From Alloascoidea hylecoeti (lineage: Eukaryota), in the NCBI GenBank assembly GCA_001600815.1, contig BCKZ01000005.1, forward strand, positions 443,532-494,174: a stretch of 50,643 bases of DNA, written 5' to 3'. A model generated the notes under the pieces. The model saw only the letters and a list, made by a program, of their open reading frames with translations. It was not told the origin of the DNA and ran no database searches. Below, piece after piece: positions 7,960 through 38,148 of this stretch. How positions within the stretch are numbered: the stretch's first letter is position 1; every line of letters begins with the position of its first letter. The position numbers were made by a program, and so were the translations under genes.

Positions 7960-9000
7960 ATGGAATATCAAAATCTTGGAAATTCAGGTCTTAAGATCTC
8001 TAAAATTATTATGGGCTGTATGTCCTATGGTGAGAAAGCATGGGCCGAATGGGTAATTGAGGATGAAGAAAAAGTATTATCGTTAATGAAGAAAGCTTAC
8101 GATGTTGGGATTAGAACATATGATACAGCAGATACTTATAGTAATGGGCAATCCGAAATCTTATTAGGAAAATTCCTTAAAAAGTATTCAATTAAAAGAT
8201 CAACTGTTGTTATTTTAACTAAATGTTTTAGCGTTTCCGATCCTATTGGCAAGCCACCTGCCAATAGTCTGGCCATACCTGAATTCGGACCTGTTAATAC
8301 AAAACAAGAGTATGTTAATCGAGTTGGATTATCCAGGAAGCATTTGATGGATGCAGTAGATGACTCTATTGAAAGACTTGGAACCTATATTGATTTATAC
8401 CAGATTCATAGATTGGACCCCATCACACCAAAGTTAGAGATTATGACTACTTTAAATGATATTGTCAGATCGGGTAAAGTTCGTTATATTGGAGCTTCAA
8501 GCATGAAAGCCGTTGACTTTGTACAATTACAATTCACAGCAGAGAAGCATAACTTGACAAAATTCATCTCCATGCAGAATTTCTATAATTTATTATATAG
8601 AGAAGAAGAGAGGGAAATGATTCCATTTTGTAAAGAAACTGGAGTTGGAATAATTCCCTGGTCACCACTTGCTAGAGGTGTTTTAGCACGCCCTATTCAT
8701 GAAAAACTAAGTTCATTACGTGCTAAGACTGATCTTGGAATTCAATTATTTTTAATGGATACTTCAGATTCCGTGAATGAAATTCATAAGAGAGTTGAAA
8801 GGGTAGCGAAAGATAAGGGAGTTTTAATGTCTCAAGTTGCGACAGCTTGGGTTATTTCTAAAGGAATGTGTCCGATTATTGGATTTAGTAGTGAAAGCCG
8901 AATTGACGAGGCAGTTGAAGGGCTTAAAGTGATTCTTAGTAATGAAGAGATCAAATACTTGGAAGAGCCATATATTCCTCAAAATGTTGTTGGATTCTAG
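7960..9000 (+). CDS. Aldo-keto reductase, aryl-alcohol dehydrogenase/YPL088W-like, copy 2
   Basis: Same AKR motifs as copy 1; ATG at 7960. Nucleotide-identical to copy 1 over most of its length apart from the ends and one internal loop. Confidence 0.93.
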   Translation: MEYQNLGNSGLKISKIIMGCMSYGEKAWAEWVIEDEEKVLSLMKKAYDVGIRTYDTADTYSNGQSEILLGKFLKKYSIKRSTVVILTKCFSVSDPIGKPPANSLAIPEFGPVNTKQEYVNRVGLSRKHLMDAVDDSIERLGTYIDLYQIHRLDPITPKLEIMTTLNDIVRSGKVRYIGASSMKAVDFVQLQFTAEKHNLTKFISMQNFYNLLYREEEREMIPFCKETGVGIIPWSPLARGVLARPIHEKLSSLRAKTDLGIQLFLMDTSDSVNEIHKRVERVAKDKGVLMSQVATAWVISKGMCPIIGFSSESRIDEAVEGLKVILSNEEIKYLEEPYIPQNVVGF

Positions 9001-17945: not shown

Positions 17946-19485
17946 TCTTAAAACTCATGTAGAAATATTATGATGTAACTATTTACAGTTGGATAATTGA
18001 AATTGTGTAGAATTTAAGTAGGGTAACATTTTTACCAGACTATTTTTGATTATCCATTTGTTTCCCTCCGAAGGAAGAGACCCCCACAACCACCAGAAAC
18101 AAGTACAGCAATAGAGAGAGCTAGACAAATCAAGATGGGATTTTTGATACTATAGCTACTAATTGATACCGTGTCATTCCATGTCAAATCGTTAATCCGG
18201 AACTACACAATCCTTTTCAACCTGCATTATTGAAGCTTAAAAACTTTTAGTACTAGTATAGTTAGGTAAACTTCGGTGTCAGATAAACGATCAAAGTATA
18301 ACTTGGCTAGTTGCATGTTGTTCAAATAGAGATAAGATCCGATTCATAACCGAAAGTTACTTGATATTAAAATTGTATTAGCAGTGTGCTCAAGCCTTCT
18401 CAAGGCCGAAGGATATTATAAACCGAGATAAAGTGGCTAATAATATTTCTTAGCAGGCGGTTGATAATAAAAGAATTAGATTATAATATACCTGAATATA
18501 TGGATCTCAATCAATTCAAAAAATAAATTTAAAATTGATATTTGTTTGATGATTATAAATTGCAATTTTCAGAATACGATTTAGTAGGAAATATGCACAC
18601 ATATGTACTAGTGCAGGAGCAGATCAAACCTACAACGGTTAGTAGCACCAGAACCAATTAATAGTAGTCAAGCTTTAGTTTTATAAGATGAAGAAGTGAG
18701 TTTTCAGCAGAATGTAACTAATGACCATGATCAGTATTTTTAGATGTTGTGGAGAAATTGACATTGTCATTTTCATGATCATGATTGATCATAATATTAT
18801 GCAACATAGTATAAAACAGCATACGACTAAATCAAGATATGAGTAGGACGTGGTTGGTTTCTTTAAGCTGTTTATGTTGATCTCCGAGGTAATAAAGGAG
18901 TTTTCCATTATGATTAAAATCACCATAACTTCAATTATATATTATTAAGGTTGGTATGTAATGTCGTGACAAAATAGTTTTAATCATGATGAATGATTAA
19001 ATGCTGTCAAATATCCAGGAACTACCCAATAGTCAACCAAATTTATTACTATTATATAATTAATTCTGAGTTGTGGGATTTATTATAAGTATGAATACTA
19101 TATATAGATTTATATAGATAGTTATTCTCGGTCTGTCTATATGACTATTTGCAGGTATACCATTACATTTTTGATGTTCCAAATTAATGCAGGGTTCCGG
19201 TATTAATGTTTCTTAAAAATCCCCTTATTTTTAGCAGTTCAGTCCTCGGAAACTGTCGTAAGTGCTTATAACCCCTCGTATTTAATAATAATATTGATTT
19301 AACATCAATCTACAGAGATAGTACAGAAATATGAAAATATATCTCTCGAGTTCAGGAAATATAAAAGACTCTTAATTTCCCTTCAGTTTATTTCCTACTC
19401 CTCAGATAATTCCCTAATTATTCCTTCGCTAAATCTTCCTAAATACTCTCCTTATAATTATAGCTGATTATTACTTATTATAATA

Positions 19486-20358
19486 ATGAAGTTTGCTCTT
19501 GTTACTCTTGTCTTTGCTGGCTCCGCTTTCGCTGGATTCCATAATGCTACCAAAAGTATTTACACTGAGACTGTCAATACTGTCGTTACTAAATTTACTA
19601 CTTATTGCCCCGAGGCAACTGAGTTGGTCGTTAATAATAAAACAATTACTGTTACTGGTGAAACTACTTTGACTGTTACTGATTGTCCTTGCACTATCCC
19701 AACAACTAGGGTTGTTACTTGCACTGAAACAGTCTGTAAGCCAACATCAGCACCCACTACACCTCCAAAAACATGCACCAAGAAGGAGTGTAAACCAAAA
19801 CCAAAGCCAACTAAATATACATCCTACTATGAAACTGTCGTCACAGAGTATACTACTTACTGCCCATCTCCCACGACCTTAACTCATGGTTCCGTAACAA
19901 TTCCCGTTACCGTTCCAGGTGTCGTTACTGTTACTACATGCCCTAAGGAAGGCTGTACTGTCACAACTGGTTCCGTTCTTAGTACTAGTGTTCCAGTTCT
20001 TTCTACCAAAATTACTTCAACATATGAAACAGCCGTTACTGAGTATACTACTTTCTGTCCAACTCCAACAACATTAACACATGGATCCGTGACAATTCCA
20101 ATTGAAACTGCTGGTACAGTTACGATATCTTCATGCCCAGAAGAGGGATGTGTTATTCAAACTAGTAGTGTTCTCACTGAAGTGCCAATCACAACTCCTG
20201 TTATTGTGCCTGAAACTTCAACTACTGAAACTTATTCACCATTACCAACCCAATCAATCGCTCCAACAACAATTCCAATTCAAATTGCAACCGGTGCCGC
20301 TGATAGAGTTGTTGTTCCTTTCGCTGGTTTGATGGCTCTTCTTGCATTTTTGTTGTAA
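19486..20358 (+). CDS. GPI-anchored Ser/Thr-rich cell-wall protein with Sed1/Ccw12/Pga59-type (flocculin type 3) repeats
   Basis: Signal peptide, three VT.YTT.CP..T repeats, and a C-terminal GAA omega region with hydrophobic tail. Confidence 0.9.
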   Translation: MKFALVTLVFAGSAFAGFHNATKSIYTETVNTVVTKFTTYCPEATELVVNNKTITVTGETTLTVTDCPCTIPTTRVVTCTETVCKPTSAPTTPPKTCTKKECKPKPKPTKYTSYYETVVTEYTTYCPSPTTLTHGSVTIPVTVPGVVTVTTCPKEGCTVTTGSVLSTSVPVLSTKITSTYETAVTEYTTFCPTPTTLTHGSVTIPIETAGTVTISSCPEEGCVIQTSSVLTEVPITTPVIVPETSTTETYSPLPTQSIAPTTIPIQIATGAADRVVVPFAGLMALLAFLL

Positions 20359-21525
20359 TTTATAGCGATTTGCATTTCTAATTACTTAACGAATAAATAG
20401 TTTTTATTTTCTTCAAGTATTATCTTTTAATTAATTTAATTTATGAATCAAGGTTTAAATAATTAAACTTTTTTATGAATTTTAAAATTCTTGTAATTAT
20501 CTTAAACGATAATTGTTTAAGTTTCTAATTTCTTGTTAACTGACTTTTCTATAGTTTGTATTCTGATTTTTTAATATATATCTTTATCTAATATTTGTAG
20601 TTGAAATTAATCTTCACAATCAGCTATAGTTCCCCTCTATAATAATGTAATACACGGTATATTAATATGTTTATTGATATTAGAACATTGTATTATCTAG
20701 ACAAATTAAATAGAGCAGGTGTGTATGAATAAAGATAATAATCTCAAGTTTCTTACTTATTGATAATTAAATAGTCACGAGTTAGTAGGTTTTCACGGTC
20801 GAGGCCCCAAACAAAGCTCCTGAATTGGAGGTACGGATACCTGTAATAGCTGACCAGAAGTAAATTTTTGATCTGGTGATTGCTGTAATATCTGTATATT
20901 TGTTTTATAATAATTAACATTACATTATATAAAGTTTATAATGATCTTAGCAATAATCAAGCTATACCTACGTAGATGTAGTACGTACACTCAATCACAC
21001 CTATCATAATACCCGAACCAATGAATACACAGAACTATAGGCAGCATATTAGTAGAACCTCGAGGTGGTGATTCATTTTACAGCTTTAAGTTGAAAAATA
21101 TTAGTCTAATTTGATTCGTAGGTATACGTATAGTTTATCAATATTAATATCAGTAAGTCATACTACTACTGTATACCAAATCATCCTAATTATATAACTC
21201 CTAACTAGTTACATAAATGCCATAAGTAACTAACGATCTAAATTTTATTGATATATTGTTATAACTGTCATTTTATAGGAACCTTTTGATAACTTCAAAT
21301 TGCTTACGTTGGGCAAAGCTACCAACATAAGAGGTAATCCAAATCTTAATAGTCAGAAAGAGCAGATTGGTGGTTAAGAGAAGGAATAGAGTGGCAAGAC
21401 AGCTAGAGGGTCATGCTTAGCTGTCACCATTTTTGTCCTCCGGTTGAATTACCCCACAATCCTACTGTGGTCCTAAAATGGGGCACGACGCGGCGCACAA
21501 GATGAAAAAGTTGCATGAAAAAAAT

Positions 21526-21623
21526 TGCTCCGTGGGAGGCTCGAACTCTCGACCTTCAGATAACACGTTTTCGCATTACACGGATATATGAGACTGACGC
21601 TCTACCAACTGAGCCAACGGAGC
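21526..21623 (-). tRNA. Elongator tRNA-Met(CAT) with a 25-nt intron (21562-21586)
   Basis: Reverse complement GCTCCGTTGGCTCAGTTGGTAGAGCGTCAGTCTCATA[intron]ATCTGAAGGTCGAGAGTTCGAGCCTCCCACGGAGCA gives a 73-nt mature cloverleaf. T7 Pol III terminator at 21518-21524. Confidence 0.95.
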
Positions 21624-21660
21624 TCAGGTTTTGTTGCAGCGAGAATAATCTTAAATCAAT

Positions 21661-23445
21661 CTATAGTAGAGATTTCCTCAGAATTTACATAGTTTCTAGT
21701 TATATAATTTAATTGGAAAATATATGAAGTCAAAAAAAAAAGAGTTAAAGAGAAGTTAAGAAGAAGAAGAGGTTTTATACTCTATAAGTGATTTCCTCAA
21801 TTTAATAGTTTTTAATTAAAAGTTTTAATCGGAAATTATATGTAAAATTGAAAAGAAAACAAATAATAATGAGGAAAAGAATTAAGGATGTATAGAAAGT
21901 AAAAATATTACTAGACTCAGTAGACTGTCTATTAATTCTGTCAGTCAACAGATATAAGAAAAAATTAGGGTAATTATAAAACCGAATAGATGAGTGAAGA
22001 AATACCCAGACTTGAGCTCATAGAACGAAGATGGGCATGAATGGGTAAAATATCAAAAAAGCCTACAAGAAAACACAATAGATTCATATGTTTAGCATAG
22101 GATACGTAACCCAAATGATTCACTCAAATTAGCGAGAAAAAAGGCGGTGGCACAAATCAGATATGTATAACTTATTCCAACAAGGAAAAGATGATATACT
22201 ATTGCGACATCTGCTTGAAGAATGCTCAACCATAAAAATACTAAAGAGAAAAATGCCATGATCTGACAGGGTAGGACTCAAAACATTAATAGTAAACCAC
22301 AAATAAGTAAGGATTGAAAAGAAGGGCCAATATATAGAAAAGGTATTAGAAATGATTTGGAATTAAAGAAGAGCATAAGATATGTAGAGACATCACCTCA
22401 AAAATTAAATAACATAGGCTGAGGAATTTTAATATTCAAGTCATAGAGAAAATATAACAATAAAAAAATTAAAACTAACGGTAGTTTAAATAATTTAGTC
22501 AAAAAATAAAAGAAGAAAAAGAAAAATGAAGACTTATAAGATCCTATATAAAGATGTAGAGGTTTTTTTGCTTTATGTGTGATTTTTTCTTGAATAGTTT
22601 CTAGTTAGAAGTTTTAATTGGATTGGATATAAAAAATATTAAAAAAAATAAAGAGAGAGAGCACAAACCGCAAAATAAAGATCACTGGTACTCAATGTTA
22701 AAAGGTAAAGAAACATTAAGAAAGCCTACAAAAATACCCAAATTTAAACAACAATGTGCCCTCAGCCTTAATTAGCATAGGATAGCCCATAATTATATTT
22801 GTATGGTTTAGTTCATTATAAGTTTGAACACGCTTAAATCTACCTCCCCACCCCCATACTAGTATCATGCTTATAACTTTTTTTAAAATATCCAATTATT
22901 AGATATTACAAAATAATATCTCTCTAAATATTTTGGATGAAAGACTTATAATCATAAGTAATATTCTTTGTTAAAAAGTATGAGCAAAAAATGAATTAAA
23001 GGTAAAATTTCTTTGCCTATAGGTTTATAGACTAGAGCATATTGAAAGTAAGATATCAATGAGGAAGCATGGGTTAAGGGTTAAGTCCCAATCATATTTA
23101 TTAGACTTAAGAGTCAAAATATAATTGGCATAAAGTTGAGACCTGTTCATTCTAAAATTTTCTTAACAATGAAGAAAAACGGAGAGTGAGGGGTTATGCC
23201 TTTTGTTGATTATTTGTAAAATGCTATCTGTTAAGACATCAAATTCTCCTTCACGGTAATAGATGTGATTTTTTCTGAGTATTTTAGTGGCAATAATATT
23301 TGGACAATTTGCCTTATTAGATTTTCCTAACATTATAAATTTCCAATAAAATTCTAACTAGAAACTATATGTTTAGATGAATAGCTCACTCTTATTGTGA
23401 AAACCCCCTGCATATATCTTCTCTCCGTTTTTAGAGACAAATAAT
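21661..23445 (+). mobile_element. Array of 5'-truncated non-LTR retrotransposon 3' ends upstream of tRNA-Met
   Basis: Units at about 21661-21741 (A10 tail), 21742-21870, 21870-22652 (A-rich tail), 22655-23310, and an inverted unit at 23341-23445. They share GAGGTTTT..GTGATTT..ATAGTTTCTAGTTA..TTTAATTGGA. The long unit encodes a decayed CCHC finger [Y]NL[F]QQGKDDILLRHLLEEC and LELKKSI..TSPQKLNNIG*GILI. Confidence 0.7.
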
Positions 23446-24171
23446 AATAAAAATAGTTAGCTAGCTGAAAAAATTCTGGTTTTATTAAAGGTATCACAAA
23501 AAAAAACTAATACTTTAATACTAGACAATAAAAAAAAATATAATATCTAGAATTAAAGCACTAAGACCAAGAAAAGATCTATATGACACCATAATCGCAA
23601 GGATTTCTGTCTACGTCTAGAATAGAGTGGAGATCTAGTCGTGTACCAAATAATTAAATTTTATAAATACCTGGGAAAGTATACAGATTCAAAAGGTGAC
23701 AGGGTAAAGTAGTGAAAGATAAAAAATTAGACATTTAATATTAGGTAGTTATACGAATGAAGATAAATAGATGTAAGGACTTACCGGTTTTAATTATATT
23801 ACACTTTGTATGCAGATGATCGGTTTAGGAGGTCAAATAAATCATGTCCGTTATAGCATGGATGTGCTAATTATGTAGATTCTGACCAAAATTATATAAA
23901 TTTTACATACACAATACTACACATTAATAGCTGTTATATCTACCAGCTCTAGTATTTTGAACTTAATTATAGAGATATACAGGAGGACAAAGTAAAAAGT
24001 TGTGTCATAATTTTGGGCACCAAATTAAAATGGAAATAAGGTATAAGCAGCTACTGAGAAAAGGCACACAATACCTTGAACGGTTCTTACAATAGTAGAC
24101 GTTCACAGTGCACCATAAATTCTATGGGTTCAAATCATTCTATTGCTCTATATGAAATGACATTTCAAGCT

Positions 24172-24812
24172 TGGGTTTAGTACTAGTTCCCTTACATCAT
24201 AAACAGCTGTAACTCTACGAAGTATGGAGTCAATCAGATTCTCAATGATATCCTGATCCATGAGGTTTCAGTAGTTTGAAAGAGGCTCAAATAATGGATT
24301 TTCCTCCACATGTGTGACTATTATTGAGCATATGTTTTACTGGATATGGATTTTATAACGACCGAACATTTGTCACTGAATACAACACCCTCCCAAATAT
24401 TATTTCTTTCTATTTCTCCGGCTCTTGTCATTCAGATAAAACATTTTAGGTGCTAGAAATGTTCCATATCCAAGTTTTGTCAAAACAGTTATTATGGTGG
24501 TCTTTAATATGAGTGCTGAACATTGAAGCTAGACCGTATTCAAGGGGGCTTTTACAACCCTCAGAATTTGATTTACTCCCTTTTCACAAAATTATGTAGG
24601 CTTTTTTCTTTCAAAGAGGAGTGTTTTAGCATATGTCTGCATTGTGCTGTTAACCACACAGTTGAAGGGTTAATATTAAGCTTCCTGCTTATTTTGGAAA
24701 TTAAGAAACCATCATTACTCAAATTACATCTTGCAATATGCTAAAATAATTGTCATTGCTTTTTAGAATTTATGTTACCTGAGATATCGTTCAACCTAAT
24801 TCTAGAAGTCAT
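24172..24812 (-). mobile_element. Internally deleted, decayed Tc1/mariner transposase
   Basis: Motifs in order: MTSRIRLNDISGN, HTH GFLISKISRKLNINPSTVW, TIITVLTKLGY...YLNDKSRRNR, first catalytic motif WEGVVFSDK, C-terminal IIENLIDSILRRVTAVY. Stops and frameshifts are present and the central DDE region is missing. Confidence 0.75.
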
Positions 24813-25065
24813 CCTTTAATATGTTTAAAGAGATGGTTTTTCTTGGAGTAGTATCCAAAAATAAATTTTGGCCTTACCCTAAGCTTCTATTCCTACGTAA
24901 ATAATATTAATTAGATACAATTTATAAACTTGAGTTATAGTATAATATTAATATTTAAAAAACTTGTGAATAAAATATAATTACATCTACATTTTAATTA
25001 TAGGAGTATTTTGAAAAATGGTAGATCAATCTAAAATACAGCTATAGCCTATAGGTACCGGTATC

Positions 25066-25068
<3 letters not shown>

Positions 25069-25099
<31 letters not shown>
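25069..25099. repeat. (AT)15 microsatellite
   Basis: Perfect AT dinucleotide run. Confidence 0.95.
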
Positions 25100-25102
<3 letters not shown>

Positions 25103-25585
25103 CTAGCCCAGTTAATTACAGTTATGATTTTTTGTGGTGTAATTTTATAACTATGGAGAGGTTTTATATTATAATTAGCTTCTACTATAAGACCTCCTGG
25201 GGCACCAAATAATGTGATGATCCTATATGACTAAAGGTGACCAATGTGATAGCTAAGAAATCGTCATCCCAACGGCGGTCACAGGAAAAACCGTGGCTTA
25301 TATTACATAAATTTTATTTCTTACAAATCTAATTTTTATGTTTTCTACTTGAAAAATACGAATACGTTTAATGTCACAACAATGACATTTTTTCCAAATC
25401 TAGGGTTTACAAGAGACCCACCAAAAGCGCTTAAAATGGATCGGAGAGGTGTGATATTCTGCAATTGTGTCGCCGATTCCCTTCAAACTTAGCCGTTGAT
25501 CTGTGTATCTTAACTACAAGATTAATATGTATTTATAATAGAATTCTGTTAAATATAAATATATTTATGATTATAATTTATAATG

Positions 25586-26462
25586 TTAATTGGATATATT
25601 TTTTTTTTCTTTTTTTTCTTTTCTTGCAGTAATTCTCATTCCTTGAGAAGCAAAATGTTTACTTAATTTTGTACTATCAATCACACCAGGAAATCTTTTT
25701 ACTGTATATACCTGAAATATATTTGAATAACAGGTGGATTTAACTGCTAAAGTGTTTTCAACAGCTAGAGAGCCATCATCGGATGAACCGATATCCGAAA
25801 GTTGATATAAGTGGAATTTCAAACGAAAGAATCCTTCGGATCTAATCGATAGATCATTGAAAATAAACCAAATTCCAGGATTTTGTTCAAGATCATTTAG
25901 TTTAAAAGCAGTTGCCGTCAAACAACCAATTAAATTTTTAGATGGAGGTTGTAGGTTTAAAGGTTGAATGTAACTATAGAGATCCTCTTCATAAGGATGT
26001 TTAGAATGATGTTCACGATGCCCTTTGGATTTTCTTTTTGAAATTGAAGAGGACGAATCAACATTTATTTTAACTTTAGAACCATCCAACTGATTATTAT
26101 AATTTGAATTGGAAGAATAACCATTATTGGTGTGATCGTGGAAGCTCTCCTGCACTAACGAACGGTTTCGTGTTTCATCAGGTGACCGTAATTCAGTTAT
26201 CAGAACAAAAGTCGAGGTGTCAATACTATTCGGATCTAATTCCTCATTTGTATCGGAATCATAAATAGAAAGACGAACGAAAGGAGGAGGGGAAATTGGT
26301 CGACGATCCTAAATATGTAAAAATAATAAGAAATTGATCGTTAGAATTCCAAAACTAATTGCAATTAGTTGTAAATGAACATACTTTATCACCGAAACCA
26401 CATGTCCTAGCCCGAACAGGTTGCTGAACTACTTGAAGTTTATAGCTGATACCTTTAGTCAT
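25586..26462 (-). CDS. velB: Velvet-domain regulator VelB, 266 aa; exons 26462-26385 and 26308-25586
   Basis: Exon 1 MTKGISYKLQVVQQPVRARTCGFGDK; 76-nt intron GTATGT...TTCTAAC...TAG (26384-26309); exon 2 DRRPISPPPFVRL... with a split velvet domain (NLIGCLTATAF, GIWFIFNDLSIRSEGFFRLKF, KRFPGVIDST.LSK.FA.QG). Confidence 0.9.
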
Positions 26463-28049
26463 TTCTTTTTAATATCAATTGTTTTCTGAAAATATATAAA
26501 GAAGTGACAGAACGAAAGTTATTTATATATTTATTCAGGGAGCTAAATACCGATATATCATCTATATAATTATACACATTTGATGTAATTACTTAAAGTC
26601 CGTATAGCTATATAATTCACAATCCACATGTTTTGCCTATAGCTAGTATATACTTATATATTCTAAACATTTTAGATCTTATGTGTATTTCTATATTGCG
26701 CCTGCAGCTGATTAGCATGTTACGACTTTTAACTCACACAAAAACAGTTTTTGAAATTATTTAATAGAATACTCTTTGCAATTTACAAATTTTTTTCCAT
26801 ACTCTGAGACATGACTGTTTAAATTTATTAAAACATTACAATTATTATTTTTTCCGGTCTACCATATGTTTAATACCACATCTTATATTCATAATTGGCT
26901 ACATTCTACTTCTATTTTTTCACACCCTTCAATTCACAAATATATTAATTTTATATAAAATAATATTTTTTGAGATTCAAATTATAAATCAAATAAATAT
27001 CGAATGAAAACAACTGAAAGCTTACGTCCTAACTTTTATCGGGAAGTAAATGCGGTTTACGAGAAGTATACTATTATATTCATAATTAGAACTATATAGA
27101 ATATATTTATTAACATTTATATTTATAGTTCTATATATATATAAATGGTATTACAATAAAATGACAGATAATATAAAATGACTAAACATGTTATAAATTT
27201 ATACTTATAGCTAACTATCTATATCTGTTAACGTTATTTCACAGCTATAAGAATAGATTGTAAATTTAATAGCCAACGACCAAATTTAAACGTCAACTGA
27301 ATGTTCTATTTTCTAAATGTCATTAAACACAGTTGCAATTCGTATCAATATTACATAACTAATATATTACTGTACCTTATATTATTTTATACTGTATATT
27401 GACCCATGTATAAATTTAAATTAAAAACAAAATGTATAAAACTTCACATGTATGCATCCGTTTCAAAAGGCTATAAAGGCAAAAACCAGACAATAATTAA
27501 AATTTAGTAAGCATATGAGAATCTTGCTTTGAACGTACTGTTATGCAATCTATTTACAGATCTTGCAATCCCAATCGCCCATTTTGAGGTTTGTGAAGAT
27601 GAACATGAATAGCCAGGATTTAATGTCTAACTTATTAGTCCCAAAATTAGAATATAATACTACCACGGCGGAAATCATAATAACTAGCTTTCTGAACATT
27701 ATAAGAATTTATGACTATCACACAAAGTCCAAAGCAAAAAGAATCTTAATGATTAAATTTAAACTTATAATTATAATTTATTAATTGATCATTAAGTTTG
27801 AGATTAGTTGCTAAACGTCTCTGACGATCTTTGTATAATATATATAATGCATATGTATTCTCGTCTAGAAGAGGAGTACTTTTGATGAAGATAGTTTGAA
27901 TGGTACTGCATATAGAATTCGGTAAAATATATTTAAATGTTATAACTGTCTTAATCAATATAGCTATAGCTACTAGCTAGCTTTGGCGAACCATAACATT
28001 AGATACGTTATGTTGGTTTAAAAAATTGAAAGGGAAATTTTTAAAGTAA

Positions 28050-29090
28050 TGATAATGATCATGCGAGGTATCCATGGCTGTCAAGTACAACAAGAAAGAC
28101 ATTTCTATGCTACAATTTCTAAAATTCAGATTTCATTCAAAATCAATCAAATTATTATATAAATGGATTCTTTCAATGTCAAATAGATTAGAAGCTATTC
28201 CTTTATCTATGTGCGTGGTGAAAAACTTTGGGCTCCTTGAATATTTAAAGTTAAGAGATTCGCTCGAGCTCATCATATATAGATCATATACAGTCAACCC
28301 ACTAATCATGAACCGCCATGAACAAAAAGTAAATCTATCTGACAATAAAACAATTGAATCCAAAGACGAAATAATCGGACATAAATATTTTTTTTATATC
28401 TGGGTATATTTATTGTAAACCGATTAATCTATAACTATGAGGTTACCTTACTATTTGTGGGGACAGGTACCTGATTTATTGGAATAATAATAGCCTCCTT
28501 TTGGGAGATTGGAATTTCTCTTTACATTAAACTTTTGTGATATTTCTCTTCTTTTCCTTTTTGATTATGTTTTGGTGATCCTTATTTCCGTTGATAATTA
28601 TTTTCTTTGTGTATTCCACAGTGAATCCACACTATTTCAATTATTGTACTTAAACCCCTTACTAAAACTTTAAACTAATAACATATTCTATCTTATATCT
28701 AATAAAAGGAAAGTTCAACTATAGTTGAAGAACGTTTGTTTCAATAGCGTAAAACCTGAGGTAATATTCACTGAAACCCTTCATAGTGATTTGATGATAT
28801 TAGCCCTTGAATATTATTGAGAATCATAATATGGAGATGAAAAGAGATTACTAGGGCTTACAGGTTGCAATTCTATTGAAGATATATCAAGGCTTCAACT
28901 ATGCTTCCTTCTTCCTGATTGTTTTAACAGGAATGTCTCCGATTGTCGAAAAGTGTGCATTTGTTGAACTGTGTGGGACTCCTCCACCTTACGCTGACAA
29001 ATAAATTGTCAGTATATGGAACCCGAAGAAAATATAATCCATAGAAGAACTGTCGGTTTTTTTGGTCTGATACAAGAGATTCAACCTCTA
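28050..29090 (+). mobile_element. Decayed pogo/Fot1-type (CENP-B HTH + DDE_1) transposase
   Basis: Degenerate motifs in the expected order across frameshifts: MAVKYN, LYKWILSMSNR..IP, IIG, IYNY[D]E, ESSTIVE..KPEVIF, ALEY, KRLLGLTGCNS (for RLLILDGHGSH), FLLP, MSPI (for LQPL). Confidence 0.55.
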
Positions 29091-29094
29091 CGTT

Positions 29095-29110
29095 ACATAT
29101 TTTTTTTTTC
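29095..29110. repeat. Left target-site duplication ACATATTTTTTTTTTC
   Basis: Identical 16-mer at 33560-33575. Reads (G)AAAAAAAAAATATGT on the element strand. Confidence 0.85.
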
Positions 29111-29410
29111 AAGTAGCCATTAACGCTCTATATAAGACTGCTTTATCTATAAATACTATATTTATAACAACCAAAAAATGTGAAAATAAAAAGACCTATT
29201 ACTAGGCAAAAATACCTATTACTAATGTTATAGGTTCACTCTTTTTTGAGTATTGTTGTTACTTTATTATAGTATTATTGCCACCATTTCCAACTTCTTA
29301 CTCAATCAATACGAATAAAGGATGTCATATGTATACATCTTTCCTCTTTTTCTTTTTTTGTCCGTAGCACCTAAGTGATTCAGAACAAAGCTTTGTGGAG
29401 TCCGTTTCAA

Positions 29411-31942
29411 TCATTTTACACCATTGTAATTCTGATAAACTATTCTCCTGTTGATAATATCTTCTGTGATATTTTCTAACCAAAAAAACTGTTTTACCGC
29501 TCTTAATATTAATTCTTTTTTTTCCTTATGGTTAAAATCAAGAAAAGATTTCACTTCAATTTCCTTTTCTTTTAGTTCTATCACCTTTTGGTTATAGGAC
29601 CATATTTTCTTTGTAATTTCACATGTCAAGAAAACATGTCCAAAGGATCATTCCAACTTTTCACAGCAGGGACATCTTTTGTCTTTAAGGTTGTTGTAAA
29701 AATGTAAATATGAAACCACTGCAGAATATTTGGTAGTCATTACGTTTGATAAATATAGGTTATTTTTGTGGATTGTTTTCCATAGCAAATCCCATCTATT
29801 GACTCCAATTGTGTAGGTTTTTTCCATTTTGGTACTAATACTTTTTGGTTTGCTTTGAAAAATGTTTTACAAATGCTCAACTGAATTTGTCGAGCACTTC
29901 ATTTTGTAGACCAATGAAGTCCTCTACTTTTAAAATTTGGGTTTTTGCTGATTTATCTATCAATTCCATGGATTGATTGAATTCTTTAATTGACCTTAAA
30001 CTTTTATTTTTAATATATTGTTGGTTTATGTCACCAACTTTTGTGGTGTCCCAGAAATGGGCTATATGTGTTCCAGGGCTGAATTATTTTGAGGTTTTGC
30101 TTAAAGCATTGGAGGTAATGCACATTTTCTGTCGAAAATTTTTCATGAAAATATTTATTATTGATTGAAAACATTTGATCCCAATCCAGGTGTATTAAAT
30201 TATCATTTTTAGCTTTTTTTTCTTTTTCCATTATTTTATTTGCTAATATTGAGGCTTTTACCCCATGAAATATCATTTGTTCCCTGATTGTGATTTGGAG
30301 ATCCTCATCGTCATTGGTTAGTAATGATGATAAATAATAGGAATGACGGCCTTTCTGTTCAATCATTAGGTCTATCAGACCATAACCTCCACTCTTTGCA
30401 GGAGTCGTCAACACTTTGAGCGATACTTGTCCATATGTACCTATATTATTTTTAATTATTTTCATAATGTCGTTCAAGATACCTTTTGGGGTGGTGAAAT
30501 TCCATAAGAAAAGGCGTCTTGGACATAACGTAAATATTTACTATGATGCACCTCGTTCGTATATTATTATGATGGTGAAATAAAAAATCCAACCTTGATT
30601 TAATATTGTTAATCATCTCTTCCCAGATTTTTCCGGGGTTCACACCTCTACCCATTGTTATTCCCAAATATTTAAAACTGTTAACGATTTCAAACTTGTG
30701 TATTTGTGATTGATTATTTATAGAACACTTGGTGTCCATTGGAAAGTATATTTTTGTTTTCCCAGCATTAACTACCGAACCAGATGAACGTTTATAAAGA
30801 GATAGTGCCCTATCAAGGACAAGTTCGTCGTCTCTGGAATTAATATAAATTGATAAGTCGTCTGCGAATAAGCTCACTTTAAGTGAGCGGTGGTTTTTTA
30901 TAGCCGATATAGACGTAACAGGTCATTTAGTGATTGCCCTTGAATGTTGATTTTTGTAATTTGTTGAGCTTTCTCTATTTCATTTTCATTTATGGACTAG
31001 ACCCCTTGTTCTTAAGTATAAAAGTCAGTTCCCTCGCAAGTTTCTTTATTTCGGATTTTTTAACCATCCAATGTTTATAGGCTGGAAATTCTTCCGGCAA
31101 TCGAATGTGTCCTTTACAAATGTAACGAACATTATCAGCATTGTAAAGCAGAGATCTGCTAATGGAAAAGGGTCTATTGTTCCTAGAGAGATTAGAGGTG
31201 GGTTCCAATTTCATATTGATCGCAAAATGGGTAGAGTGTTTCTTGTTGGATATCGAAGATTTTGTAAGATCGTTTGTTAGAGAGGAAGATATATAAAATC
31301 TGTCCAGTCTTCTTCTTGCTGATATTGCAGATTGAATATTGGAAAATTGTTTCTTTGTTGGGTTTAATTCTCTAAAAGAATCAATTAAAGAATATTGACT
31401 CAGAAGTTCTTGTAGCTGACTGACTCCTTGATATTTAATTCTAGTGGGAACCGAAGAGTCAAGAGAAGGTAATTCAACACAGTTGAAGTCACCTCCCCAT
31501 ATTAATTGGTGCTTTGATACGCGTTGGATAAAAGGTTTCATTGATTCGAAATATTCTATTCTTTCGTGGCCGGTGCATGGTACATGGGAATTGATGATGG
31601 TGATAAAATCCTTTTGGTATTCTATGTGAATAAGGGAGGTATGTGCTTGAAAAGTATAGCGAAATGGTTCTCTAATATTTTGAGCGAAAGAGTTCCATAT
31701 TTGGTGTTTTGGTATTTTTGTGGAAACATGTTTTAATTAGAATGATTGTCAAGTTTGAATAAGCCATCTCAATTTCGATTTCCTAGAGCTGCTTTCTTAA
31801 GCTGAGGAAGTCTCAGCCTCGGGTTTCTTGTTATAATAAAATTGTTAAATTGTCATTTTGCATAAACTAGTTAATAATTAACGATTGAGTTAATTTTGAG
31901 AATCTTCCCACATTTTGAGGAAATATTTATATATTCAGACAT
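29411..31942 (-). pseudogene. LINE ORF2 (APE endonuclease - reverse transcriptase - CCHC finger), disrupted
   Basis: ATG at 31942 (MSEYINISS..NV, ILL*QET), GGDFN, LIDSFR, RLDRFY, STH, SLFADD, FKYLGI, KSGGYGLID, CPCC...HVFLTC. Contains stops and frameshifts, and RT subdomains upstream of FADD are deleted near 30880-30990. Confidence 0.88.
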
Positions 31943-31949
31943 TAATAAT

Positions 31950-33460
31950 TTAAAGAAGATGGTGGTACGCTATTTGGCCCAGCTGGTGAACCCTTTTGTA
32001 TAGTTGTATCAGCGTTAATTTATTAAAATGAGATCTATTATTCACTTTAGTAGGGCTTGAGTGATGACTCCTAGAGCGTAGACATCTAGGAGTTCCAGGA
32101 GATTCCTCGGGGGATATTAATGGCCTCGCAGGGATATGATTAGTGTTATTAAATATGTTAATGTCTGTTACCGGTTGAGTAGCAGTAACCGTATGTTCAG
32201 GAAGATCTATAGTATCTGATACAACACTAGAATCCAATGAAAAGTTTTCTGGGTACCCTTCTGCTTCGGAATCTGTGATATCCATTGTTTCAGTAGCCTC
32301 CATTTGGTTGGGGATATGTGGTTCATCCTTGTTAGATGATGACATGTTCAAAAGGGGATTCTTTTCTGATTTCAAATCTGCAGCAAAGGCGGCATCTTCA
32401 TTTTCAGAAGAATCTTCGGCCATGGTAAAGTCATCCGAGGATTCACTATTGGGAGATTCGTCAGCCTCCGATTCCAACATCCGCAATAGGAGTAGATGGT
32501 CTTGACGGATAAGCGTTTTGTTTTTTGGGGTTTTTCTTTCTTAATGGGGTGGAGATTTTAAGTGGAGGAGCGGGTGCTTGCAGATTCTCCTCAATTGGGT
32601 CCGGATCCCTCAGATGTTCGAGGACGCCAAAAGGATTTTTTTCTAAATAGGGATGGGAGGTGTTTGCCGGAACGGATGCCTGAGCAACCTTGTGAGCCTT
32701 CTTTTTCCTATCATTACCATCAGCAACGCGGGGGGAGGATTAGCGGCTTGTTGCTGCTGAGTTCTCGCGCCACCAGAAACAATTGGCAAATGATAAACAA
32801 GCTGTTGGGGACAACTTGCTTTACCGTGGAAAAGTGAATTGCAATGAATACTATATAGCTTTCCGTTTGGCTTCACGTGAAGTCGGAAAGAGTGAGCAAT
32901 GGATCTACCTCGAGAGGTAACCTTAAAGTTGTTACTACCTTTGGAATAGTAGTGGGTGCGTGCATCATCGGGAACTTCTACTAAGAGAAAGTTTGGTGCT
33001 TTAACGATAATCTGAGATAGATTGTCTGTATCATTCAAATTGTTTGCAAGAAAAGCAATTGGTTGACAAAATTGGTCAATTGTTTCTGCAAGTTCTTTTT
33101 CCACTTCTGCAATATGGATGGGGGCGTCCGTAGTAATGACCGCCACCTTTAACAAAGGGTTGATTCTTTCCATAGGAAGGATTTGGGCCAAAGCGTAAAA
33201 TGATAATGAGTTCATTATCTTAATGATACCGGACGCGTGCAAAGGCGACCAATTGGTCTCCCCTGTTACAAAAATAAGGTAATTTCACCTTTTTACCAGT
33301 AAGCTTCTTTTCCACATCGTTTTGGAATCATCGATGGTCTTATTATCAGAAATGATTAATCGGTATAGTAAAGCTCTCGGGTTGTTTGCCGCAACTTCGG
33401 CATGGCGTAACATACTATGCACCTCATTAACAATGGAGGCAAAGAGGGGGGCTTTGATCA
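31950..33460 (-). pseudogene. LINE ORF1 (gag-like), disrupted
   Basis: Frameshifted ORF fragments 33242-32643 and 32486-31950, a degenerate knuckle [S]IHCNSLFHGKASC and an acidic Ser/Pro-rich tail. Stops 7 nt before the ORF2 ATG. 5' limit approximate. Confidence 0.65.
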
Positions 33461-33559
33461 CTGTTTCCCTGTTGGGGGGCCAGTGACAAGATACGGTTTA
33501 GTTTTAGGTACCTTTTTGTCTCAAATAAAGACAAATTAAAATATTATTTTTTCTGGGGC

Positions 33560-33575
33560 ACATATTTTTTTTTTC
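33560..33575. repeat. Right target-site duplication ACATATTTTTTTTTTC
   Basis: Identical to 29095-29110. Confidence 0.85.
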
Positions 33576-33644
33576 CACATAGGCTACCCAGTTATGTCGA
33601 TTAAAAATCGAAAAAAGAAAATTTCGGTTCATTTGATAATATAA

Positions 33645-33715
33645 TGCGTCAGCCCGGAGTCGAACCGGGGGCTCTTCGATGGCAACGAAGAATTTTACCG
33701 CTAAACCACTAACGC
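33645..33715 (-). tRNA. tRNA-Gly(GCC)
   Basis: Reverse complement GCGTTAGTGGTTTAGCGGTAAAATTCTTCGTTGCCATCGAAGAGCCCCCGGTTCGACTCCGGGCTGACGCA folds as a cloverleaf with a GCC anticodon. T6 terminator at 33611-33616. Confidence 0.95.
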
Positions 33716-33759
33716 TTTAATTATCTCTGTGAAGGAACAATCATGATATCATCATTATT

Positions 33760-35162
33760 TTGGGTGTTCCTTTGGTCTAGGTACATAAGAAGGGAAGAAA
33801 GAAGAGCGTCAAGAATACACAAAAATAAGAAGAATAGAAAGAGAGAGGTTTTTATTTCACTATATATAGTAGAGATTTTCTCAGAATTTACATAGTTTCT
33901 AGTTATATAATTTAATTGGAAAATAAAAAAAAAACTATAGGCTAATAATAGATACATTATATACATTAAAGGTGTTAGAAATTAGGAAAAGTATTACATC
34001 ACCCGAAACCTTAAACGAAATAGATTGGGGTATTTTATTTTCCAAATATTAATATAACATTATAAAATAAAAATGAATGAAAACAAAATAAACAAGGTGG
34101 TAAGAAAAAGAGAGATAATAAAAACAAATAAGTAGAGAAATGAAAGAGAAATAGAGAAGAAGAAGAGGTTTTATACTCTTGGAGGAGTGATTTCCTCAAT
34201 TTAATAATTTTTAGTTAGAATATTTCAATTAATTAGATATTTTAATCAGAAATTATGGTTAAAAAGAAAAAAAAAAAAAAAGACACCACCACAAATCTTA
34301 TATGAGATTGATTGGGGGATTCTAATATTGGATATATAGTTATATAGTTATATTAAAATTGTTTTTGTTATTACATAGTTACATATATATGGGGTGATAT
34401 TTATGGTGAACTAATTTCACTTATATATTAGCTAGTTCCTACATTAGTTAGTTTTAGAAAATACACGTTCTTTTTATAATAAAACTTTACTATGCCTCAG
34501 AATAAATCCAAGGACATCAATGAGCAAGAGCCTCTAAGCCAACATCTAATATCTGAAAACTTGAAAAAGTAAAAAAATTCAAGGTGGTCTAGGTTCATAA
34601 GAAGGGAAGAAAGAAGACATTAATATTAAGAAGTAGTATGGAAATAATAATCAAAGAATAGTCGAATAATGAGTTCCTTTACATTTCGTAAGAGAACCAT
34701 ATAGACCTTTCCTTTTTTGTTCTTCTAAAAAAGAGCTTTACATCTCGTTATTATGTAATTGTCGTTCGTCTTTAACTTATTGTTGTTCTTGTTTCATATA
34801 TTCATGTTGCTATATTATATATATTCTCACGTTACTATTGTTAGTTGTTATATATCGATCATATGGCTATGGCTTTTACTTGAACTATATAAACCCTCAT
34901 TTTCCTAGTCTTCAGTCTTAGTATAATATACTTAACTTTCCTTTTCCTCTCGATCTCCAACAATTTTTGTAGAGAAACTAGGAAACGGTCCTCTTACGAG
35001 TGTGGGGTATCTTAATGTGGTGGCATTTATTTAAATAAATAAGAAAGAGGAGAAGGACAAGAAAGATATAATAAGATAAAGAGGTTTTTCATTTCCTTCA
35101 TTAAATAGTTTTTGGTTGGTCATTTAATTGGAACTTATATATAAAGTTTAAAAAATAAAAAG
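33760..35162 (+). mobile_element. Array of 5'-truncated non-LTR retrotransposon 3' ends upstream of tRNA-Gly (same family as 21661-23445)
   Basis: Units at about 33760-33934 (A10 tail), 33935-34281 (A5GA15 tail), 34282-34340, 34400-34680 and 34969-35162. About 60 bp are near-identical to 21662-21722. Shared ORF-end peptides WVFLWSRYIRREERR / IDWGILFSKY / IDWGILIL / WSRFIRREERR / WGILM. Confidence 0.72.
34718..34962 (+). mobile_element. Possible solo LTR (245 bp) nested in the array
   Basis: TGTT...AACA ends, near-matching 5-bp flanks TTTTT/ATTTT, internal TATATAAA at 34886. Only one copy is visible. Confidence 0.35.
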
Positions 35163-36384
35163 AAGCAATTCTGATAATGCATGAATGGTGAAGAATTGGT
35201 GGCATTAATATTTGAATAATAAATGGATATAAATAAGCCGATTTGTTACGTATTTCTAGTTTCTTCTTTAAGTTATCATTAAGTTAATCTTTAATATACA
35301 ATTGCTTAATTAAAGCCATAAACCATGAGGGTCAGCCCTTGGTGAAGGGTTGGTTTCTTCACACGAAAACGTTACTTATATGAGAGGTTAATATTGTTTG
35401 AGTTTGGTGAGACTAACCCATGTTAATTATAAGTGCTACTTATGTGTTATGCAACAAACGGTAATAAATCACACTGCATATGCATATGCATATATAAACT
35501 TTATATGTACACCATTCCCATTTTCTTTTACAAAATTTCAGAGTATATTTATTAGTTAATATTACAACAAAATATTTTAATCCTATACTAGAATTATAAA
35601 AAAGTTAAAAAAATGATGATTTTATATATGATAGAATGTATTATGCATATGCACATACTAGCATCTGAACCATCCGACTAAAATTTTCACCACGATCATT
35701 AATCTTTTTTCTAATTTCTTTTTTTTTGAATATATATATTTTACTTAACACTATATATCCGGTCTATCACCCTCAGTGTTTTTTTTCTCTGATTGACCTT
35801 TTTATGGAGGGTATTTTCCTCATAATCTGCCAACCGTTAACGTTTCCTGTTCAGTGGAGGTAAATTCAACAACGATTCTTTATACTTCTCTATCATTGTA
35901 TCACAGGGGGTGTCTTAATAAGGTTTGCGGTTTTGGCACCATAACTTCTCATAGGTGAAAGACATATCCTAACAAGTTGGATATTACATATATATAATTG
36001 AAACAGGAAACCTAAAGCGATCATTGCATCAGAGAATGGGAACTAAGAACAGAAAAGTAATATATAAAATGCTAAGGCAAGATATGAAATGGTGAAATAT
36101 GGGTCATTATAAATGTTGTAGAGTTTTAGATATGACGAGAGGATAATTTCTTGAAAGTTTAAGAGAATTCATCTGCTCATAGATCTAGATAGTCAATTAA
36201 TTATTATTATCAGATTATTATTATTCTATTATATTATTATACTGTTACTCATTTATTTCTTGTGCAATTCATTTTAAGTCTTAATTTTTACAGAGATCAA
36301 ATTGGCCGTATTCCATTCAATTACGGTCATTTGTTTCTCCACCTAGCATGAAAACTTACTAACCGTAATTGTTTCACTAGTGTA

Positions 36385-36990
36385 GAATATGGTTTCATCA
36401 ACATAAATCTGGTTTCATCAACATAAATCTGGTTTCATCAACATGAAGCTCAATTGATTTATAATGAAGTTGTTGATCAAACCTTCAAGAGCATCATACC
36501 AAGATTTAAGATCATAGATCCAGAGAAATCAGTATTCGTACAACATGGGAGCCATCTCATTTATTATTCGTTGATTCCTATCAAGAAAGCTTTAAATCCA
36601 TTTTAAATCCATACAGTGTCTGTTTGCATTTTGTTTTAGCGGCTTTTGTTTCGGTGGTGGGGCGCGTCTTGGGACTGTATCTCTGGTCAATCACTTCATC
36701 CACAATCTGGTAACACGCTTCCTTATCAATCTCCACACCTATTCTAGCCGTAAACCAGTGGATTATTGGGTTGTTCCTTTTATAACTGTGTGAGCAAAAT
36801 CGGTATTTTTTGTTTACAACAGCCGAAGAGAGTCCACTATTCTCTCTGAAATAAAATGTTGAGTCGGCACACCGTTCTCTTTAGCAATTTTTGAAATTTA
36901 TGTATTCCTTTCAAGTGATAATTGATCAAAATCTTTAAAGATTAATATTCTACTCTCCTTGCTCTTTGATACAGGAGGCTTTAAATTTGA
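36385..36990 (-). mobile_element. Decayed pogo/Fot1-type transposase, N-terminal half
   Basis: ISKIAKENGVP.STFYFR (HTH), KWI*SFLDRNQRI, DLKSWYDALEGLINNFII and VDETRFML (for MDETGFML), in order. Confidence 0.7.
36390..36444. repeat. 20-bp tandem repeat TGGTTTCATCAACATAAATC x2.7
   Basis: Read directly; it triplicates the DET-motif codons of the pogo relic. Confidence 0.9.
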
Positions 36991-37413
36991 TTATTTTTCC
37001 TTAATATTATTTTCACGGATATCAGAAGGGGACAAAGAATATACGGGCCAGGGTTTACAAATTACGCGATCTGTCAAAACGCCCCTCATACTGCCCAGAC
37101 TGAATGGAAGTCACTCTATAAGATTATGGTACCATGGTACATGTATAAAAATTTGTCATACTGATCATGAGCCAGCTAATGAAAGTGTGAACTATTTATT
37201 TTCAATGAGTCTATAGCTACCTTTGAAATGCATCTCAACATATTTTACACAAAATTATAAAACTATTAACTTTAGATGCTAGTTTAATTAATATAGCAAT
37301 ATTAGAATTATATAAATCACTGGATTAAACTAAATGTGGTATCTATGTATATTGTACGAGCTAGAAGCAAATTATCGTGCCAGTAGATTGTTCATACACT
37401 CCATTAATAATGA

Positions 37414-38148
37414 TTATACATCATCAAAAAATAGTTGCAAGTAATATTCTTTTGTGTCTTTATCCCAATATGTCCAAAATCCATCACTGCCTTTTGCAAG
37501 GTCCTTCGATGGAATTTTAAAAGCCACTGTCTCACACGGTTCAGCAGCTATGACCAAGTATCGATAATTTGTATTTAATTCCGGAGTCTCCTGTTTCTGT
37601 TCATAGCAGGACATAAATCGATGTCTTGGTACTATATCCTCTTTGATGTCTTCATAGTGTAACTGAAACTTAAGACCAATACGTTTCGAAACAGGATCCC
37701 TAATCTTGGCAATTTTATAACCAGGTCGACCAGTTTTAACAAATTTATGCTTTTTTATTGTAGAGGCTGTTGGACCACGAGCGTCCGCTATACTACCTTC
37801 TAATTGTTGTTTTTGGTCTTTCGCTGCCCTTTTAGCTAAATTTGTCTGATGTTTTCTTCCTTGAGTATGTGATAGGTATGAACCTTCAGACACATGTGTA
37901 GTAGAGCATAACCTGCATTCTAAATGACCAACGTGATTCCTGAAGACATAAGGATCTTTGTCAAAGTTTATTGTTTCTAATGCTAATTGCCGTTGACGTT
38001 CTCGTTTATATGCGTTGGATTCTGCCCAACCAGCTTGGCCACCACCTAAAATAATTAAAAGTTTTAGATTCAGATTGTTTATATATTTAATAATAATGGG
38101 TAAATACTTACTTCCTTTCTTTGATCCTACTCGATTTTGGAAATCCAT
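37414..38148 (-). CDS. PRP11: U2 snRNP SF3a subunit Prp11/SF3A2; exons 38148-38112 and 38045-37414
   Basis: Starts MDFQNRVGSKKG; 66-nt GTAAGT...TTTTAG intron (38111-38046); then SGGQAG...DPYVFRNHVGHLECRLC.T.H..EGSYL.HTQGRKH (U1-type zinc finger), GRPGYK, AAEPCETVAFKIP. Confidence 0.92.
   Translation of the reverse strand: MDFQNRVGSKKGSKYLPIIIKYINNLNLKLLIILGGGQAGWAESNAYKRERQRQLALETINFDKDPYVFRNHVGHLECRLCSTTHVSEGSYLSHTQGRKHQTNLAKRAAKDQKQQLEGSIADARGPTASTIKKHKFVKTGRPGYKIAKIRDPVSKRIGLKFQLHYEDIKEDIVPRHRFMSCYEQKQETPELNTNYRYLVIAAEPCETVAFKIPSKDLAKGSDGFWTYWDKDTKEYYLQLFFDDV

Follow-up and report, generated by a model that had tools for sequence, protein, structure and literature searches.

Insertion close to transfer RNA (tRNA) genes is the textbook way in which transposons of compact genomes secure a 'safe haven'. 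In Saccharomyces cerevisiae, the long terminal repeat (LTR) elements Ty3 and Ty1 leave 5-bp duplications at their insertion sites. Both are sent to sites upstream of genes read by RNA polymerase III (Pol III), Ty3 by TFIIIB and Ty1 by Pol III subunits (PMC5911963). In the accessible part of that 2018 review, the tRNA-targeting yeast elements are all of the LTR type, and its table of non-LTR elements comprises TRE5, TRE3, NLTR-A and NLTR-B, with no fungal case; a 2026 review, in its accessible part, mentions only Ty1/Ty2 for tRNA genes (PMC13269885). The targeting of tRNA genes by non-LTR elements is documented only in dictyostelid amoebae. TRE5-A of Dictyostelium discoideum, at 40-54 bp, and NLTR-B of Polysphondylium pallidum, at 39-64 bp, both lie upstream of tRNA genes and are transcribed in the direction opposite to these, their 5' end being turned to the tRNA (PMC5911963; PMC5006619). 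The 5'-truncated insertions of TRE5-A are often accompanied by target deletions and then lie nearer to the tRNA gene, for instance at 28 bp (PMC3159450). Among the non-LTR long interspersed elements (LINEs) of budding yeasts, of which the known ones are L1-type, Ylli of Yarrowia lipolytica has no identifiable target duplications (PMC5014426) and Zorro3 of Candida albicans enters poly(A) tracts (PMC7175516). Here we describe a 50,643-nt stretch of Alloascoidea hylecoeti DNA (contig BCKZ01000005.1, positions 443,532 to 494,174; hereafter the window), whose source is a budding yeast and in which a family of A-tailed repeats is stacked upstream of both tRNA genes. We estimate at about 0.6 the probability that these arrays are piled-up insertions of a tRNA-gene-targeted, LINE-descended non-LTR retroposon family. 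In agreement with the initial annotation of this DNA, which knew of no such element in fungi, no fungal tRNA-targeted non-LTR element was found in the open full-text literature, a search whose coverage leaves out subscription papers and Repbase.

One repeat family, arranged head-to-tail in two clusters upstream of tRNA-Met (stack A) and tRNA-Gly (stack B), was recovered by repeat search, blastn and MAFFT alignment, which agree with one another and with the initial annotation (Table 1; copies are numbered outward from each tRNA gene). The strongest blastn pairs join 21659-21722 to 33862-33925 (E 3e-25), with 96.9% identity over 64 nt, and 21747-21821 to 34143-34220, with 85.9% identity over 78 nt. 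Within the window, 4 matches to a degenerate 29-mer of the 3' module were obtained against 0.00 expected from 100 shuffles, and an nhmmer profile of this module recovered its 6 plus-strand source copies together with 1 inverted copy (E 4e-6). The next best match of the profile has an E-value of 0.77, and the family is confined, within the 50.6 kb, to these two clusters as had been claimed. The 3' module of ~120 nt is common to 7 copies and is composed of a purine-rich tract, GAGGTTTT, GATTTCCTCA, ATAGTTTCTAGTTA and TTTAATTGGAAA, followed by an A-rich tail. The 5' ends of the copies vary, giving lengths of 83, ~130, 162, 347 and ~780 bp, and the tails are of variable length: A10 at 21732-21741, A10 at 33925-33934 and A5GA15 at 34261-34281. 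The shared 3' end, the unequal 5' lengths and these three tails had all been correctly read in the initial annotation, and its count of about 10 fragments roughly fits the exact tally of 7 modules and 2 internal pieces (A4 and B3).

The common 3' end, the variable 5' ends and the variable A-tails point to a non-LTR, target-primed anatomy, and the fragments resemble insertions of a non-LTR element that bear an A-tail and have lost part of their 5' side. The copies abut directly at their A-tails, without any spacer remnant, which argues for little or no target duplication. An origin as solo LTRs, or as pieces of a Ty-like LTR element, would also suit the location upstream of tRNA genes, a position typical of Ty1-Ty4 (PMC5911963); it is nevertheless scarcely credible, given that only the 3' end is shared and that the A-tails vary. 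Neither LTR-like ends, nor common 5' ends, nor TG..CA termini were found among the copies by alignment and profile, and no gag/pol remnant was detected by Pfam in 44 open reading frame (ORF) pieces of the region, as the non-LTR assignment of the initial annotation had implied. Analysis of the 3' end by RNAalifold gave a hairpin with a 17-pair AU/GU stem. Its covariation term is unfavourable (+0.84), with double changes in 2 pairs only, and for this reason the conserved hairpin is kept as a lead only.

The stacks stand at two of the two tRNA genes of the window and start at -35 (Met) and -57 (Gly). The distances of ~38 and ~45 bp first proposed have to be corrected accordingly: the first family base of stack A is 21659, and at tRNA-Gly detectable homology begins at 33773, before which the sequence of the other copies differs (loose contig ends). 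The tRNA-Met gene, missed by ARAGORN with bacterial settings and seen by Rfam only, is presumably the elongator one, a label suggested by its resemblance to the corresponding gene of S. cerevisiae. Beyond these two tRNAs, no Pol III gene appeared in a permissive Rfam scan of 20300-37500. As previously noted, all modules but one (6/7) are divergent from the tRNA, with their 5' end facing it, the exception being located 1.7 kb away. Uniform placement would bring both clusters to within 60 nt on the upstream side of the two tRNAs, in divergent orientation, with a probability of ~7e-7, a value which by our estimate would rise by roughly an order of magnitude if placement were restricted to intergenic DNA. 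The two stacks are independent and not a duplicated block, since the tRNAs, the spacers and the truncation points of homologous copies differ (83 bp in A1 vs 162 bp in B1, ~130 bp in A2 vs 347 bp in B2).

Random integration followed by survivorship, in which copies persist only in the harmless DNA beside the tRNA genes of a compact genome, would be compatible with the gene density of the window outside 20.4-37.4 kb and with the fact that yeast transposons are known to shelter in tRNA-flanking DNA (PMC5911963). Such a process does not predict starts at -35 and -57, an orientation bias of 6/7 or abutment at one reused site, and the other intergenic DNA of the window is without copies; we consider it quite improbable.

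The abundance of the family was assessed in public sequencing runs, of which 5 hold part of the stretch and 4 most of it (X1 to X4, from three samples), X5 holding a small share only. The contigs of X1-X4 were placed at 80% likeness on positions 21300-35500. These contigs break at repeats, and their summed depth is a rough proxy, not a copy number, used only to tell more from less repeated segments. In single-copy bins the summed depth is ~23.6, 60, 8.5 and 7-14 in X1, X2, X3 and X4, respectively. Over B1 (position 33840) it reaches 3776, 9172, 1155 and 1048, that is ~90-160x the single-copy bins, and over the module of B2 (34181) 154, 682, 111 and 90, or ~6-13x for the A2/B2 subfamily. The 3' untranslated region (3'UTR) of B3 (34406) is covered ~1243 times in X1, ~53x the baseline, and the old ORF ends and old copies stay at ~1-2x. 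The A1/B1 type greatly exceeds the A2/B2 and A3 types in repetition, and the family is real and prolific, its 3' end recurring very many times in the contigs of this species. At least 11 contigs in each of X1 and X2 follow the window as far as 21728 and leave it there, first with A12-14 and next with unlike sequence. At least 2 contigs carry A16 and 13 further family bases ahead of 33773; as A16 precedes other copies, stacking behind another A-tail also takes place elsewhere in the genome. X4 is a wood-decay metagenome run holding 82% of the sampled words of 19000-23500, which points to a close relative of this yeast in the wood-decay habitat.

At both loci, the same order is observed from the tRNA outward: first the abundant copies A1 and B1 (97% alike), then the rarer A2 and B2 (86%), and finally the decayed A3 and B4 (~70-77%). 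This order, with the youngest copy proximal, fits better with repeated insertion at one tRNA-anchored site than with insertion into older tails, since at an anchored site each newcomer pushes the older copies outward and tail insertion predicts the opposite.

The ORF end of the family was compared in B2, B3 and A3. Eighteen in-frame codons (T[SP]P..L...IDWGIL....) are kept in the three copies, whose DNA is 70-76% alike, and codon 19 is a stop in each of them (TAA, TAG and TAG, respectively). Codons for Pro, Glu, Ile, Gly and Leu show synonymous differences in their third position. As the ORF end is in frame in three copies, its stop is placed identically and such differences are synonymous, the source element was protein-coding, and the family is, judging from its sequence, a non-LTR retroposon of coding descent. 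The homology of the ORF-end peptide TSP..LN.IDWGIL, proposed in the initial annotation, is borne out by these three copies. The second peptide proposed there, WSR[YF]IRREERR, lies downstream of the stop and corresponds to conserved 3'UTR DNA; the decayed CCHC finger placed at 22165-22215 found no support either, with 0 Pfam families, 0 tblastn matches and a hidden Markov model (HMM) E-value of 0.94. When the antisense ORF over B1 was used as protein query, the only match was P0151, another short family copy with a different distal flank.

A second non-LTR element, LINE2, was overlooked in the initial annotation. This decayed element adjoins tRNA-Gly downstream, in the same orientation (Table 1). 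Its 15-bp target-site duplication is exact, and these two sites are the sole occurrences of the 15-mer in the window. Twelve of its nearest full-length relatives are 1146-1213 aa long and contain RVT_1 (12/12), Exo_endo_phos (10/12) and zf-RVT (8/12), the plan of the L1 type, to which LINE2 belongs. A protein search for a longer protein containing the reverse transcriptase (RT) piece of LINE2 gave no match. The contig depth over LINE2 climbs from ~2x at the 5' side to ~22x at the 3' side, which is a classic truncation gradient. The possibility that LINE2 and the upstream family belong to one family was tried and rejected: tblastx gave nothing below E 0.05 and the Smith-Waterman comparison of the 3'UTRs with shuffled sequences was unconvincing, with p>=0.04 in 5/6 comparisons and a single value of 0.003 due to purine-rich low complexity. 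As a single case beside a tRNA, LINE2 is uninformative on targeting, although its placement and direction would be compatible with a TRE3-like habit as well.

Several results weigh against tRNA-directed insertion by a LINE-descended family. The link with tRNA genes is drawn from two loci only, the argument that young copies are the abundant ones uses summed contig depth and not copy number, and the identity of A1 and B1 extends over 64 aligned bases only. The inverted copy has no Pol III gene beside it. No target-site duplication is visible by eye around A1, B1 and B2. This lack is not disqualifying, since Ylli is also without duplications and TRE5-A insertions often show target deletions. In metagenome contigs, the 3'-module pattern was matched at 1 locus (L001), rejected as a family copy because it is a chance match within tandemly repeated TATAGTTTTTAAT units of an unrelated organism with AT-rich DNA, and no tRNA accompanies it; the same pattern had 0 matches in viral contigs and 0 in prokaryote genome contigs. 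With 43 full-length L1-type ORF2 proteins, 0 tblastn matches were obtained in the family zones at E<=1, the same proteins placing 87 of their 97 high-scoring segment pairs within LINE2. An HMM of the ORF2 C-terminus gave E 0.94 on A3 vs 9e-10 on LINE2, used as positive control, and a protein search for a longer protein containing the ORF-end peptide of B2 (41 aa) gave no match. The full-length copy with apurinic endonuclease (APE) and RT domains, which the initial annotation had proposed to seek by extending the copies, was recovered neither with the B2 peptide, nor with the 43 ORF2 proteins, nor with the C-terminus HMM.

The failure to find an APE/RT copy of the family is what would be expected if the abundant short copies were a derivative resembling a short interspersed element (SINE), moved in trans by another LINE such as LINE2 after extinction of the coding ancestor, with the helper picking the site. 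The abundant part of the family is indeed its last ~0.5 kb, and the same genome also harbours an APE-RT LINE family whose copies are 5'-truncated. LINE and SINE partners usually share their 3' ends, yet those of LINE2 and of the family are unlike, and the LINE2 insertion has a clear duplication whereas the family is without. The copies have no tRNA-like or Pol III promoter head: for tRNA-, 5S- or 7SL-derived heads of the SINE type, the Rfam E-value scan of 20300-37500 gave just the two real tRNA genes. Their 5' ends vary as in LINE truncation. This explanation appears about as improbable as survivorship.

Two further points against tRNA-directed insertion concern the tails: direct abutment at A-tails would also arise by insertion into these tails, and the other LINE of the window, LINE2, used an A10 target. 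In the corresponding scenario, each new copy enters the A-tail of an older one, as expected if the endonuclease of the family simply favoured A/T runs in the manner of Zorro3 (PMC7175516), and the vicinity of tRNA genes is secondary, with one founder per locus. The absence of spacer or duplication between copies and the A16 ahead of other genomic copies agree with it, and the exact LINE2 duplication, which starts with A10, keeps it under consideration since Zorro3 uses such targets too. Insertion into tails predicts, however, that the oldest copy is proximal to the tRNA, and at both loci the proximal copy belongs to the abundant, 97%-alike subfamily. In addition, no A-run stands ahead of A1 or of B1, the first copy of each stack, the spacers upstream of them ending in TTAAATCA and GTTCCTT, respectively, which are non-A 5' flanks. 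Two founders within 60 nt upstream of the sole two tRNAs, in the same orientation, are left unexplained (~7e-7). We therefore regard A-tract targeting as unlikely.

Under our preferred reading, insertion at a tRNA-anchored site, the ribonucleoprotein of the element would be brought to the upstream border of the tRNA gene, probably by TFIIIB/TFIIIC. The strand bearing the tRNA sequence would then be nicked at the upstream edge of the region covered by TFIIIB, the coordinates of whose footprint are taken here as general background. From the orientation of the copies, the distal 3'-OH would prime reverse transcription on the A-tail toward the tRNA, and reverse transcription would usually stop early, leaving the 5'-truncated copies seen in the anatomy. 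The same site would be reused with little or no duplication and the older copies pushed outward, which would account for the youngest copy lying beside the tRNA at 2/2 loci. The members active today may be either autonomous (APE-RT) or short derivatives moved in trans. The more specific proposal of a high-copy, recently active L1-type LINE lineage, with an independently evolved insertion that is guided by the Pol III complex, nicks the upstream edge of the TFIIIB-bound region, leaves almost no duplication and builds age-ordered stacks by hitting one site repeatedly, is tentative and falls a little short of an even chance. The Pol III-targeted LINE of the initial annotation stands as regards the A-tailed and 5'-truncated anatomy, the coding origin, the position and the orientation; the APE/RT domains and the CCHC finger did not materialize.

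Table 1. Coordinates of the tRNA genes, the stacked copies and LINE2 in the window (strands are those of the window).
Feature	Position	Strand	Remarks
tRNA-Met	21526-21623	-	Anticodon CAT, 27-nt intron; Rfam RF00005 51.1 bits, direct reading; putative target gene of stack A
Spacer, tRNA-Met 5' end to first family copy	21624-21658	.	35 nt
A1	21659-21741	+	83 bp; abundant subfamily; ends A10; 96.9% to B1 over 64 nt; nhmmer E 4.5e-16
A2	21742-~21872	+	~130 bp; older subfamily; A-rich tail, end approximate; 85.9% to B2 over 78 nt; nhmmer match 21744-21860, E 2.7e-26
A3	~21873-22650	+	Longest copy, ~780 bp; decayed; 5' limit approximate; ORF end 22390-22446 with internal stop (TGA); 3' module 22521-22649
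A4	22651-22790	+	Possible internal fragment without 3' module; weak, 31 nt at 81% to 22048-22078
Inverted 3' module	23338-23424	-	nhmmer E 4.4e-6; blastn; 1.7 kb from tRNA-Met
LINE2 target-site duplication, 3' copy	29095-29109	-	Merged with A-tail
LINE2	29110-33559	-	Decayed, 4450 bp, other family; Pfam/protein matches, contig depth
LINE2 zf-RVT	29414-29866	-	E 5e-6
LINE2 RT, C-terminal part	30455-30922	-	RVT_1 E 2e-5, below Pfam cut-off; N-terminal RT motifs deleted
LINE2 APE	30993-31736	-	GGDFN; phmmer: 1345 proteins at E<=1e-3, 45 at E<=1e-10
LINE2 ORF1	32646-33284	-	CCHC-like motif; ORF1 region 43% G+C vs 30% for the genome
LINE2 target-site duplication, 5' copy	33560-33574	-	15 bp, A10TATGT; 70 nt downstream of tRNA-Gly
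tRNA-Gly(GCC)	33645-33715	-	ARAGORN; Rfam 59 bits; putative target gene of stack B
Spacer, tRNA-Gly 5' end to first family copy	33716-33772	.	57 nt
B1	33773-33934	+	162 bp; abundant subfamily; ends A10
B2	33935-34281	+	347 bp; older subfamily; intact ORF end 33996-34052 (stop TAA); tail 34261-34281
B3	34282-34617	+	ORF end 34283-34339 (stop TAG) and 278-nt 3'UTR piece; abrupt end, without 3' module; 97% to B1 over 33 nt
B4	35043-35158	+	Old 3' module; A-rich end; nhmmer E 9e-19

Stack B is interrupted between B3 and B4 by ~420 bp (34618-35042, depth ~2x), which may be a later insertion or rearrangement, since B3 loses its 3' module exactly there. The segment 34335-34578 may be a separate third retroposon or the 3'UTR of the young subfamily, and our verdict is independent of this choice. 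The window is AT-rich (~30% G+C) and gene-dense outside a 17-kb stretch without long ORFs (20.4-37.4 kb); among the Pfam domains found in its uninterrupted ORFs are the flocculin type 3 repeat, a YEL1-type PH domain, Prp11/SF3a2 and an amino-acid permease. The 17-kb stretch is not empty, because a velvet-factor domain (Pfam E 7e-55) lies at 25589-26308 on the minus strand, in an open frame outside the ATG-started ORFs of at least 200 aa; this frame probably belongs to a gene that contains an intron or begins further downstream. In the same stretch, 24144-24617 and 23196-23669 resemble further low-copy repeats, with a raised summed contig depth (~4.5x and ~2x) and 'skip' joints at several places in other contigs. 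A (TA)n microsatellite (25047-25121) and, 2 kb apart, a related AT-rich palindromic stretch (27108-27147) cause spurious mir-297 matches in the permissive Rfam scan, and three 20-nt tandem units, AATCTGGTTTCATCAACATAAATCT-like and 88-100% alike, are found at 36386-36450. Elsewhere in the window, two adjoining aldo/keto reductase genes of similar length (5603-6652 and 7960-9000, plus strand) are probably a tandem duplication.

If the arrays are indeed insertions of a tRNA-targeted non-LTR family, they would represent another independent origin of tRNA targeting and the fungal counterpart of Dictyostelium TRE5. With the group formed by TRE5-A/B/C and NLTR-B, as far as described in the accessible parts of the sources, the family has in common the upstream position (here 35 and 57 nt), the divergent orientation (here 6/7), the oligo(A) tail and the 5' truncation, and the lack of visible duplication is also in agreement with the 5'-truncated TRE5-A insertions that show target deletions (PMC3159450). 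Unlike TRE5 and NLTR-B, its host is a budding yeast and not an amoeba, and its copies are found in tight, age-ordered stacks. Convergence with the dictyostelid TRE elements is assumed here, since kinship with the TRE clade would have to be judged from an RT sequence and none was recovered. The family resembles Zorro3 and Ylli by its yeast host and its poly(A)-tailed, 5'-truncated copies, as LINE2 does by its APE-RT-zinc-finger ORF2 plan and, in the case of Zorro3, by its A-tract target (PMC7175516). It differs from them in standing at both tRNA genes, an association which the accessible parts of their descriptions do not report (PMC5014426, PMC7175516), and it would reveal a third LINE-bearing lineage among budding yeasts, where LINEs are rare. 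Like Ty3 and Ty1, finally, it is a yeast retrotransposon family located upstream of Pol III genes; in contrast to it, and according to the accessible literature, Ty3 and Ty1 are LTR elements with an integrase and LTR ends, and Ty3 enters at the transcription start. A first comparison of LTR and non-LTR tRNA targeting inside one fungal subphylum would thus become possible, in the host group for which knowledge of Pol III transcription factors, of genetics and of Ty3/Ty1 targeting is most advanced, and target-primed reading of TFIIIB/TFIIIC would be directly testable and comparable with integrase-based targeting.

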